Assembly (NCBI RefSeq): GCF_046105845.1
Contig: NZ_CP151004.1
Source: Escherichia coli
Lineage (GTDB): Bacteria; Pseudomonadota; Gammaproteobacteria; Enterobacterales; Enterobacteriaceae
DNA: 64,000 nucleotides
Strand: one strand, 5' to 3'
Shown here: positions 22,113-24,423 of the stretch, piece by piece
Numbering within the stretch: position 1 is the stretch's first letter
Layout of the letters: each line of letters opens with the position of its first letter
Notes under the pieces: generated by a model
What the model was told of the DNA's origin: nothing
What the model saw: only the letters and a program-made list of their open reading frames with translations
Database searches by the model: none
Position numbers and translations under genes: made by a program

Positions 22113-22330
22113 AAATATCTCGCCAATATCATTTTTGAATCTATGGAGAGAAAAGTACCCTTGCCGAATCTTTAAAGAAAGCGCATTTACGCATCATTTT
22201 TTATTTTTGCGAGGCGTTTTCCAGATATGATGTAACAGTTGCAGTTATTATAAGTTCAAGTAAAACAGCCTTGTATTAATACCAGAATAAGGGCATCTGT
22301 TTTTTTATATTCAAGAATGAAAAATTTTTG

Positions 22331-22576
22331 TCATTCCTTATGCTCCTTACACTGATCATCAACACCAACTACCTCCCCCTTTTGCCTGCCTCCCTTTGCT
22401 TTACGCACCGGGAATTGCTGACGTTCCAGATATTGCTCTACCGCTTCGCGTAAAATTGCAGATCGTGAAACCTTACGCCAGCCCCTAAGCTTGTTCAGCC
22501 GTTTAATTGCCTCTTCTGATAAATGAAGAAAAACCGTATTCATCGCCATTACCACCACCTTACATATATTACTCAT
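22331..22576 (-). CDS. yiiE: small ribbon-helix-helix (CopG/MetJ-like) protein, paralog of the previous
   Basis: 81-aa ORF (72 aa from ATG at 22549); RHH-like VSRSAILREAVEQYL; tandem paralogous unit with conserved upstream motif. Confidence 0.6.
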   Translation of the reverse strand: MSNICKVVVMAMNTVFLHLSEEAIKRLNKLRGWRKVSRSAILREAVEQYLERQQFPVRKAKGGRQKGEVVGVDDQCKEHKE

Positions 22577-22967
22577 TAATGTATGTGCGAAAATTACGCC
22601 GAAAAATCATTTAAAAAAAGCGGATTTTTGCATGTCGTTTTGTTTTTGCGAGACGGCATCCAAAGATAATGTAACAGTTGCAGTTATTTCAATTGTTACT
22701 CAAAAATGGTTTAGTAATAACCCAGGATGGTTTATTACTTTTAATTAAGCGGGGACACATCTACAGAAAAGAAACAACAAATAATAAGGATGAATTATGG
22801 GTGCTATAAATATTTTATATTCAAGAATATTTTTTTGATTGGGTGTTCATTTGCTTCATCAGGATGGTGTACCCGAAAAAGTCAGCAGCTTTACCGCACC
22901 AGGGTTTAAGGTGAAATCTACCATTCATAACTGACCGGTCAGTGCCGCACCAACCGGTCTTTAATTG

Positions 22968-23246
22968 TTAGTAGTAGTAAATTTGTGGATAACAGTCCGG
23001 GAACCAGACGATTCCTTCTGGATCATCCCCCTGCATTACCCGATGACATTGGCGTCGATCATCTGCGCGACGGCGAAGCGTAGTATAGAGCCGCTTCCAT
23101 TCATGATCGCCCGGTGTACTGTAGTTTACCCAACAATCCATTGAAGGGTGACGCCATTTACCTGTAAGTGTTGGGATCCCTGAATGATTATGCGGCTTCG
23201 CTTTACCATTACGATCCCTATCTTTACGCGTATTAAGCGTGGACAT
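22968..23246 (-). CDS. hypothetical small basic protein
   Basis: 92-aa ORF; ATG preceded by acaggagactaaaa SD; no recognisable family. Confidence 0.5.
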   Translation of the reverse strand: MSTLNTRKDRDRNGKAKPHNHSGIPTLTGKWRHPSMDCWVNYSTPGDHEWKRLYTTLRRRADDRRQCHRVMQGDDPEGIVWFPDCYPQIYYY

Positions 23247-23307
23247 TTTTAGTCTCCTGTTAAGAGTTCTAAAAATGTGCTTCCTTAAAATAGTTCATCA
23301 TTTTCCC

Positions 23308-23520
23308 TTAATTCGCATAGCGTGCTTTTGCACGAATTTCCGATACGCGGGGACCATTATGATAGCGTCGATGCCCACACATCCAACAAGAACAAATACA
23401 GGGAGTACGAAAGCAAATACCTGATGCTTTTTTGCTTCCATCGCCTGCAGTGCGATAACGGCAGCGGATTTTTTTTAATCGCGCCATATGATGGCGACGT
23501 TCAGCACGATTACGGGTCAT
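23308..23520 (-). CDS. hypothetical small basic Cys/His-rich protein
   Basis: 70-aa ORF; ATG preceded by caggag SD; Arg/Lys-rich N-terminus and CICSCWMCGH cluster suggest zinc-ribbon-like fold. Confidence 0.5.
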   Translation of the reverse strand: MTRNRAERRHHMARLKKIRCRYRTAGDGSKKASGICFRTPCICSCWMCGHRRYHNGPRVSEIRAKARYAN

Positions 23521-23525
23521 AGTAA

Positions 23526-23626
23526 AACTCCTGAGCAGGCGGCACTATGCCGCTTTCATAGGAGTTCTGAATGCTGGTGCTTTCTGTATGGCATAACCAT
23601 GCCTCTAACGGTTAAGTGCCTGCAGC
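23526..23626. repeat. ~100-bp direct repeat, copy 1
   Basis: aactcctgagcaggcggcactatgccgctttcataggagttctgaatgctggtgctttctgtatggc... near-identical to copy at 25343; contains hairpin gcggca-cta-tgccgc followed by ttt. Confidence 0.8.
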
Positions 23627-23895
23627 ACATGTTGCGGATCATTGGCAATCGCTCGCAGCAAAGCCTTTGCAGGCCCAGTCGGTGAACGTCGCCCCTGCTC
23701 CCAGTTACGCAACGTGTCTACGCTTACGGAAATAAGTTCGGCAAATTTAGATTGTGACAACCCTGAAGCGCGGCGTATTTCTTTGATTTTCATAGCATCA
23801 ACTTCAAAAGTCCGTGAAGGCTGTCGCGTTCCTTCAATAATTTCATTCATCTGGGCCATGCTGTGAGTCAACCGCTCAAAAAGTGCCTTATCCAT
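23605..23895 (-). CDS. HTH (XRE-type) antitoxin, HigA-like
   Basis: 96-aa ORF directly downstream of and abutting the toxin gene; XRE HTH IKEIRRASGLSQSKFAELISVSVDTLRNWEQGRRSP. Confidence 0.75.
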   Translation of the reverse strand: MDKALFERLTHSMAQMNEIIEGTRQPSRTFEVDAMKIKEIRRASGLSQSKFAELISVSVDTLRNWEQGRRSPTGPAKALLRAIANDPQHVLQALNR

Positions 23896-24207
23896 TTACC
23901 ACCTCGTATTTAACAACCGGAGCATTGCTTTTTCCTGGGGAGACAGATCATCTTTAATACCCTTACGATAAATAAGCAGTAATCTGATCTCATAATTTTT
24001 AACCTGATGAAAGTAAATAACCCTGACACCAGCACGTTTCCCCTTTCCTCCTGACACCCATCGAACCTTTCTTAACCCACCAGTTTCAGGTATTACCTCA
24101 CCATAGTCAGGATTCAAGGCCAGGAAAAACTGAAAACGACTGAATTCATCGTCGGTCAGCAGTTTTTGAACATCTTCAGTAAAAATTTCCGTTTCGATGA
24201 AGAGCAT
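23896..24207 (-). CDS. RelE/ParE-superfamily toxin, HigB-like (toxin-first gene order)
   Basis: 103-aa ORF; RelE-like core ...GGLRKVRWVSGGKGKRAGVRVIYFHQVKNYEIRLLLIYRKG...; upstream of its antitoxin as in higBA modules. Confidence 0.75.
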   Translation of the reverse strand: MLFIETEIFTEDVQKLLTDDEFSRFQFFLALNPDYGEVIPETGGLRKVRWVSGGKGKRAGVRVIYFHQVKNYEIRLLLIYRKGIKDDLSPQEKAMLRLLNTRW

Positions 24208-24423
24208 AATTATACGCCATTGGCTTAGAGTAACAATCCTTTTTGTACGTCATTGACGTACCCTTGAAACCACTAGCTTACTGATAGTGCTCCAGCAAAA
24301 CCACGTCTCTGCCGGGTTTGTCTTTACATTTGCGAGGCGCTTTCCAGATTTTTCACGCCCGTGAATTTCCCTGTATCCATCCAGCAAAAACGGGTGTATA
24401 AAACTGTACATTCATACAGCAAA

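Follow-up and report, generated by a model that had tools for sequence, protein, structure and literature searches.

Three copies of a 21-nt motif upstream of yiiF, yiiE and a higB-like toxin gene of Escherichia coli are likely CRP-S sites

What is the function of a motif of about 21 nt that recurs upstream of three small gene units, yiiF, yiiE and a higB-like toxin gene, on the chromosome of Escherichia coli? We analysed this question in a stretch of 64,000 nt (assembly GCF_046105845.1, contig NZ_CP151004.1), referred to here as the window, which is a chromosome segment of the fdoI-fdhE ... fabY region. The initial annotation had read the motif as a regulatory signal shared by the three units and pointed to the spacing of a sigma54 promoter. 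From comparison with known operators, we consider it likely that each copy in the window is instead an E. coli-type CRP-S site, an operator for cAMP-CRP together with Sxy (TfoX), and that the yiiF, yiiE and higB-like units are probably wired into the competence regulon. A specific and testable assignment would thus replace the speculative one.

The repetition of the motif is real. We detected three copies, all read on the plus strand: copy 1 (TTTGCGAGGCGTTTTCCAGAT; site 1, 22206-22226, core 22208-22223 TGCGA-GGCGTT-TTCCA), copy 2 (TTTGCGAGACGGCATCCAAAGAT; site 2, 22645-22667, core 22647-22662 TGCGA-GACGGC-ATCCA) and copy 3 (TTTGCGAGGCGCTTTCCAGAT; site 3, 24329-24349, core 24331-24346 TGCGA-GGCGCT-TTCCA). 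Copy 3 has one mismatch to copy 1, and copy 2 is a degenerate copy with more than three ungapped mismatches to copy 1 that retains TGCGA...ATCCA. Two or more matches to the 21-mer were found in 0 of 100 shuffles, and TTTGCGAGRCG occurs three times against 0.14 expected. The three places had been located correctly in the initial annotation, with coordinates a few bases off, and the distance of 70-120 nt to the start codons that it gave fits the 96, 98 and 124 nt counted here with the CGCA end of the motif as the starting point. Site 1 lies 96 nt upstream of the yiiF ATG (22112) and about 105 nt downstream of the yiiE stop, site 2 lies 98 nt upstream of the annotated yiiE ATG (22549), and site 3 is found in a divergent intergenic region, 124 nt from the higB-like ATG (24207) and 87 nt from the ATG of a hydrolase gene on the other side. 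The distal half-site and the spacer of site 2 are degenerate in this strain; the yiiE copy of K-12-type genomes has the perfect form (TTTGCGAGGCGTTTTCCAGAA), with TGCGA-GGCGTT-TTCCA at this place.

The E. coli CRP-S consensus, as given by Søndberg et al. from 2009 work, is 5'-T4G5C6G7A8-6N-T15T16C17C18A19-3' (PMC6728893). A CRP-S site is asymmetric, works in either orientation by class I activation and requires both of its different half-sites, which in the sxy promoter are TGCGA and TTCCG (PMC6728893). Copies 1 and 3 match the core of this consensus at 10 of 10 positions and copy 2 at nine (ATCCA), and the pattern TGCGA-N6-[TA]TCC[AG], searched on both strands of the 64 kb, is present only at the three motif copies. 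Near-identical 22-mers were found in the promoters of the K-12 Sxy regulon: radC (tccTGGAAagcgccTCGCAaag, 20/22), sxy (tttCGGAAagagccTCGCAaat, 18/22), ppdA (ttcGGGAAggcgtcTCGAAgaa, 17/22), ppdD (ttcTTCGTaacgccTCGCAaat, 16/22) and comM (cggTGGAAtgatgcTCGCAaaa, 15/22, both half-sites being perfect despite this lower count). The sxy 22-mer picked here is the published sxy site. These known CRP-S sites share with the window motif, to which they are identical at 15-20 of 22 positions, the same 22-bp architecture with T-rich and A-rich flanks, the use of either orientation and a location tens of bp upstream of the promoter.

A CRP-S matrix was built from five sites, none of them from this locus (sxy, comM, ppdD, ppdA and Klebsiella radC). 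Copies 3, 1 and 2 score 24.7, 23.1 and 20.0 bits with this matrix and occupy ranks 1-3 of the 128,000 window positions, compared with 19.8-26.4 bits for the training sites, 15.1 for the next window match and 16.8 for the best of 20 shuffles. The K-12 yiiE and yiiF sites reach 26.6 and 23.1 bits. Site 1 is assigned by consensus match and matrix, site 2 by pattern and matrix, and site 3 by matrix and conservation. By sequence, the copies belong to the CRP-S class, and within the window the class is specific to these three places. They are best classed as new, or possibly already catalogued, members of the known CRP-S class. Sinha et al. are said to have described 34 CRP-S units in 2009.

Is the motif maintained outside E. 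coli? We fetched the fdhE-hydrolase-fabY loci of Pseudocitrobacter, Citrobacter amalonaticus, Leclercia and Lelliottia via the hydrolase protein and not via the motif. All four genera have the motif at a distance of 87-90 nt before the hydrolase ATG, changed at 0-2 of its 17 positions, and the hydrolase loci of E. coli and Superficieibacter carry the exact form, which gives six genera in all. The intergenic DNA beside the motif is far more diverged, at roughly half of the positions as judged by eye. The substitutions within the 17-mer are at positions 1, 9 and 11, which are spacer or flank, and leave the core TGGAAAG-N3-CTCGCA. This bipartite conservation with a free spacer is consistent with the CRP-S reading because a CRP-type 5-6-5 operator behaves in this way; likewise, half-sites are kept while the 6-bp spacer varies, and copy 2 keeps TGCGA and ATCCA with a replaced spacer. 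Behind the motif we found nothing in Leclercia, vapB-vapC in Citrobacter and Lelliottia, and the higB-like pair in Pseudocitrobacter and the window. In Leclercia, the motif is retained without a following gene, as would be expected of an operator that is orientation-free and acts on the divergent gene as well. The idea of a regulatory signal common to the three units is thus supported, as a conserved cis element under purifying selection that belongs to a defined operator class.

The likeness of the copies might also reflect shared ancestry alone, that is, tandem duplication of a yiiE/yiiF-type unit with its upstream DNA and no present function. Copies 1 and 2 are indeed contained in a 79-nt direct repeat (22171-22249 and 22610-22688, 80% identity) upstream of the paralogous genes yiiF and yiiE, and hydrolase-motif-vapB, the ancestral arrangement, exists in other genera. 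However, the similarity of copy 3 to copies 1 and 2 is limited to about 27 nt, conservation across the six genera is far higher in the motif than in its flanks, and the motif recurs at unrelated loci and in known Sxy-regulon promoters. We regard this explanation as very unlikely. The 79-nt repeat also includes the atgtaacagttgcagttatt block, and the atgatgtaacagttgcagttatt block beside site 1 (22227-22249) has its twin beside site 2 (22668-22688) as part of the yiiE/yiiF duplication. The initial annotation had proposed this CAGTT-containing block as an operator for the ribbon-helix-helix (RHH) proteins YiiE and YiiF, which is not supported: the block is absent upstream of the yiiF orthologues in Citrobacter, Lelliottia and Superficieibacter and is also diverged in the K-12 yiiE copy. 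The conserved element by the start codons of the yiiF orthologues is a palindrome, ATATAC-N4/5-GTATAT, that is separate from the motif.

Further copies, which the initial annotation had suggested looking for, were found in at least 20 unrelated contexts in Enterobacteriaceae after collapsing orthologous places. BLAST with copy 3 detected one upstream of yhcG in many E. coli genomes. A search for the exact 17-mer with one genome per species gave 37 Enterobacteriaceae among the 120 matches listed, the other listed matches being chance coding matches in GC-rich genomes; the genera among the listed matches are Escherichia, Citrobacter, Enterobacter, Lelliottia, Leclercia, Phytobacter, Pluralibacter, Silvania, Pseudenterobacter and Superficieibacter. 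The extended consensus is wwtCTGGAAAGCGCCTCGCARAA, and there is no conservation outside it. In most contexts, a gene in the same orientation lies 60-180 nt downstream, and very often it belongs to a type II toxin-antitoxin (TA) pair (several HigB/RelE families, CcdAB, VapBC). Other downstream genes are yhcG, rhuM, a phosphotransferase system (PTS) operon and coaBC (the exact 17-mer is also found at radC/coaBC), and some contexts have no gene behind the motif. True plasmids carry almost no copies and viral contigs few, most enteric matches among the latter being in chromosomal-type contexts. The motif has no Rfam match, a literature search for the exact motif sequence gave no matches, and a BLAST check of ccdO157 gave none either. 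Separately, the phage-like contig L140 has the exact motif at 4363-4379, with lysis genes on one side and the small terminase gene on the other; a 114-aa open reading frame (ORF) begins about 60-77 nt downstream. Lambdoid phages carry accessory genes (morons) at this position.

Both orientations relative to adjacent operons occur among these copies, which shows the occurrence and not the function of each. The relBE copy at nrdG-cybC is inverted, so that the motif faces away from the nearest operon, and copies in divergent regions are found at the hydrolase, pepE, yfhM and radC genes. The inverted relBE copy and the copies beside divergent genes without a gene behind them can be understood because CRP-S sites are orientation-independent. 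We also fetched radC-coaBC loci via CoaBC, and other genera have TTGCGTAGCGCCTCGCAAAGTG in place of the motif, which is an inverted repeat TGCGT-N6-TCGCA. The form TGCGA-N6-TCGCA is the CRP-S motif of the competence regulon, of which radC is a member (Cameron & Redfield 2006, PMC1635313). Judging from the distribution of the motif, mobile TA modules may be widely controlled through CRP-S sites in Enterobacteriaceae, and accessory modules may often start at such a site.

A shared sigma54 -24/-12 promoter of the three units was the alternative raised by the initial annotation on the basis of the TGG-N10-GC spacing, which is present in the motif. Read in this orientation (CTGGAAARCGCCTCGCA), the motif aligns in register with the 17-mers of 135 sigma54 binding sites determined by chromatin immunoprecipitation sequencing (ChIP-seq) in E. 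coli K-12 (Bonocora et al. 2015, PMC4591121), and the GG at -24 and the GC at -12 are 10 bp apart. The conserved block of 17 bp is as long as a sigma54 site, its conservation is bipartite with a variable middle, and glnAp2 likewise has TCGC at -12. However, the motif differs from sigma54 sites by A at positions 5 and 7, C at position 14 and a GC-rich spacer. With a matrix built from the 135 sites, it scores 4.9-5.3 bits (copy 2, 1.4), lower than all 135 in vivo sites (minimum 6.8, 5th percentile 10.1, median 14.4), and 195-228 window 17-mers (about 0.15-0.18%) score as high or higher. The matrix recovers the true sites of the window, namely the intragenic fdoI site (CTGGCGCGAATTCTGCA, IS47 in Bonocora et al., 20280-20296 (+), 17.7 bits) and glnAp2 (TTGGCACAGATTTCGCT, 44764-44780 (+), 16.3 bits).

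K-12 carries identical motif copies at yiiE and yiiF, and neither these genes, yhcG nor any CTGGAAA site appears in the main, high-stringency ChIP-seq tables or in tables S1-S7 including the low-stringency peaks (PMC4591121); the only dfp entry in these tables is an unrelated site 923 bp off (OA07). No motif site is listed by genomic SELEX (systematic evolution of ligands by exponential enrichment) of RpoN promoters (PMC8743547). Transcription start sites (TSSs) mapped at yhcG in K-12 lie 28 and 60 nt upstream of the degenerate copy and not about 12 nt downstream (PMC7967276 supplement), at odds with a sigma54 promoter. Moreover, no enhancer-binding-protein gene or shared upstream site for sigma54 is present, and the motif occurs in both orientations relative to TA operons and is kept where no gene follows. 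We hold the sigma54 reading, which these results do not support, to be very improbable and all but refuted. The sigma54 matrix gives 12.7 bits, a value that bound sites also reach, to a different 17-mer, TCGGCGTAATTTTCGCA at 22586-22602 (-), which precedes the yiiE ATG by 36 nt. At the equivalent K-12 position, ChIP-seq has no reported sigma54 peak.

Several points weigh against the CRP-S assignment. The matrix sites were chosen as the best motif-like 22-mer per promoter, which is partly circular, though the chance of at least 16/22 identical positions in 200 nt is only about 1e-3. Downstream of the sites, the sigma70 -10 elements that can be predicted are weak and at no single fixed class I distance; they place the site centre near -62 (coaBC), -70 (hydrolase) and -85 (yiiF), where the coaBC value refers to the E. 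coli radC-coaBC copy outside the window (locus L144, centre about 62 nt from the predicted coaBC TSS). The K-12 TSS tables contain no primary TSS for yiiE or yiiF, which would be expected with Sxy off but does not count in favour of the model. Not all copies are kept: copy 2 of this strain and the yhcG copy of K-12 are degenerate, and the E. coli pepE site is without the TGCGA half and retains only the CTGGAAAG half. The spacer GGCG(C/T)T is more constant in the TA-associated copies than the published consensus requires, and several homology breakpoints are located exactly at the motif edge; both are accommodated by the CRP-S model, which predicts neither.

The breakpoints could also indicate that the motif is, in part or entirely, a recombination or insertion anchor at the 5' edge of exchangeable small modules, with near-identity resulting from copying and not from constraint. 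Strain ZLWT is without yiiF from the base right after ...CCTCGC, the homology between the K-12-type and N1454-type yhcG regions starts at the first motif base, and in Enterobacter cloacae a TA module that opens with the motif truncates rhuM. One Citrobacter genome has pepE-motif-ccdAB and another pepE-motif-higBA...-motif-ccdAB. In three genera, 0-3 nt separate the yjbB stop codon from the start of the motif, and the modules that follow differ; the empty site is without the motif. Different modules also stand behind the fixed hydrolase-proximal copy. On the other hand, there is no recombinase gene nearby (a 617-aa ORF beyond the hydrolase gene has no recombinase domain), and no inverted or second terminal motif copy is present at the other end of any module. 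Most indels in the fdhE-fabY hotspot are not at the motif: the one in O157 arose via 99-nt repeats, and the K-12 and ZLWT deletions are elsewhere. Near-absence from true plasmids also speaks against an anchor, as do the core competence promoters, which carry the same site without attached cassettes. The outermost functional element of a module tends to lie at homology boundaries anyway, and part of the boundary pattern would be expected because the CRP-S site is the outermost functional element of its module. We hold a recombination anchor to be improbable.

A related and rather doubtful idea combines both aspects. Across Enterobacteriaceae, CRP-S sites might be more than operators of a set competence regulon, namely stable 'heads' of small landing pads by core genes, behind which modules are swapped in and come automatically under Sxy control, with the sites perhaps promoting the exchange. 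Tentatively, the anchors would be the hydrolase, pepE, yjbB, yfhM, symE and the aat-clpA region, and the modules would possibly comprise TA pairs, orphan antitoxins, nucleases and the PTS operon, sometimes in arrays with one site each. There is room for this idea because the spacer of the TA copies is unusually uniform and fixed sites precede variable modules.

Other candidates were considered and dropped. No consistent -35/-10 pair of a sigma70 promoter includes the motif on either strand. An RNA or DNA hairpin or half-terminator would need a downstream arm, which is present in few contexts only (loci L050, L071/L099, L072 and L094), and the window copies have z of about 0. A small ORF across the motif does not fit, the reading frames differing among copies, and a rule of a fixed distance of about 97 nt was weakened after collapsing orthologues and paralogues (range 60-178 nt). 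The motif resembles a mobile-element end, an oriT nic site, Xer/dif, hix, cos and an IS end only in part, and these were rejected; there is no second end, and few copies are on plasmids. With the exact fit of the CRP-S consensus, four further candidates were also dropped, namely an Ada box, a marbox, an OmpR-type direct repeat and an IclR half-site.

How would CRP-S sites act at these genes? The proposed operator is 22 bp long and asymmetric, with a C6-type half-site TGCGA, a 6-bp spacer and a weak half-site TTCCA. It shares with the canonical CRP-N site (TGTGA-N6-TCACA) the protein, the 5-6-5 geometry and the total length, but its strong half-site has C in place of T at position 6, and its second half-site deviates strongly; sites that deviate in this way are reported as weak CRP binders that need Sxy. 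cAMP-CRP would occupy the site productively only together with Sxy. Once Sxy is made, CRP-Sxy would be placed about 60-90 bp upstream of a sigma70 promoter and give class I activation. A competence-linked outer promoter (P1) would in this way be added to units that have their own antitoxin- or RHH-repressed promoter near the start codon. Because orientation is irrelevant for CRP-S sites, the target of site 3 could be the higB-like operon, the divergent hydrolase gene with its LexA-like box, or both. We infer the binding of CRP and Sxy, the gene driven by each site and the transcription starts from these sequence features.

The hicAB operon has an outer CRP-S promoter P1 and a proximal antitoxin-repressed promoter P2, and Haemophilus toxTA is organised alike (PMC6957337). 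The units described here resemble both in that a CRP-S site precedes the first start codon of a TA-like operon by about 100 nt and a separate palindromic operator lies by the start codon, but they belong to other toxin and antitoxin families, and their two-promoter layout is predicted from sequence. The hicA P1 site was not found with the CRP-S matrix built here. Overexpression of Sxy induces chpSB, higBA and hokD (PMC11951105), and the chpS upstream region contains two CRP-S-like sites, TGCGAgacgacTCGCA and tCCGAgccgctTTCCA. In K-12, this region upstream of chpS (locus L166, 2271-2344) shows a palindromic TGCGA-GACGAC-TCGCA and tCCGA-GCCGCT-TTCCA, and that upstream of higB (locus L165) shows TGGAA-GCGCGA-TTCCA, a palindrome of the weak CRP-S half-site.

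If the assignment is true, YiiE, YiiF, the RelE/ParE-NadS pair and perhaps the hydrolase with its SOS box would be switched on by CRP and Sxy, and TA-type genes would join hicAB, chpSB and higBA in the E. coli competence (CRP-S) regulon. In contrast to the known CRP-S sites, the genes that would be served are not DNA-uptake genes but two RHH genes, the RelE/ParE-NadS pair and possibly the LexA-box hydrolase. Two genes without assigned function would also gain a regulatory context.

The genes around the motif copies are arranged in the order fdhE (+), yiiF (-), yiiE (-), two small ORFs (-), the NadS-type antitoxin gene (-), the RelE/ParE toxin gene (-), the hydrolase gene (+) and the 617-aa ORF (-). 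Most of the 4-kb stretch around the copies is common to about 1,286 of the 5,426 complete E. coli genomes, and the others have varied deletions and insertions. yiiF (21870-22112, -) is annotated as an 80-aa RHH protein and yiiE (22331-22549, -) as its 72-aa RHH (CopG family) paralogue. A PIN-domain gene follows the 80-aa yiiF orthologue in Citrobacter amalonaticus (locus L147, 1665-2293) and Lelliottia (locus L149, 1685-2302), where RHH_1 and PIN form a VapBC pair. Because these orthologues precede a PIN toxin gene, E. coli yiiF looks like an orphan VapB-like antitoxin gene whose toxin was lost, and yiiE is probably likewise an orphan VapB-type antitoxin gene without its toxin.

The RelE/ParE-family (higB-like) toxin gene (23896-24207, -), identified by annotation and orthologue, is intact in the window and frameshifted in the strain used for annotation. 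The adjacent gene for a NadS-family helix-turn-helix antitoxin (higA-like; 23605-23895, -) matches NCBIfam NF041265 with 61 bits, barely over the cut-off of 60. Divergent from the toxin gene, the window encodes an alpha/beta hydrolase of the hormone-sensitive-lipase type (24436-25344, +). Its predicted -10 element is TATAAA (24397-24402), with the centre of site 3 about 70 nt from the TSS placed by this element, and the hydrolase gene is a possible second target of site 3. A LexA-box-like CTGTACATTCATACAG (24404-24419) overlaps this predicted promoter. Boxes of the CTGTATGRATRYMCAG type are found upstream of the hydrolase orthologues in six genera, including Trabulsiella, in which the gene is encoded at another locus, and the hydrolase may be SOS-regulated.

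The fdhE-fabY interval is a general indel hotspot, with DUF6708, IS1 or IS621 insertions in other strains. Comparison with locus L002 shows that K-12-type genomes have lost about 4.3 kb (window about 23003-27263), and with it a 92-aa and a 70-aa ORF, both TA genes, the gene for the hydrolase and the greater part of the 617-aa ORF. A 99-nt direct repeat of 92% identity (23526-23624 and 25343-25441) flanks the higA/higB-motif-hydrolase segment; it opens with a 41-nt hairpin-forming stretch, and its second copy holds a remnant of the higA 3' end. E. coli O157:H7 is without 23631-25342, exactly between these repeats, and has one repeat copy left. The 617-aa ORF (25513-27366, -) has no Pfam or NCBIfam match; O157:H7 has it split, K-12 retains an N-terminal stub of it, and one RefSeq genome labels part of it as 'transposase'. 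The ORF contains VVMGCKSAKDRT, a CX5R motif, which we take to resemble that of the SopB/IpgD phosphoinositide phosphatases.

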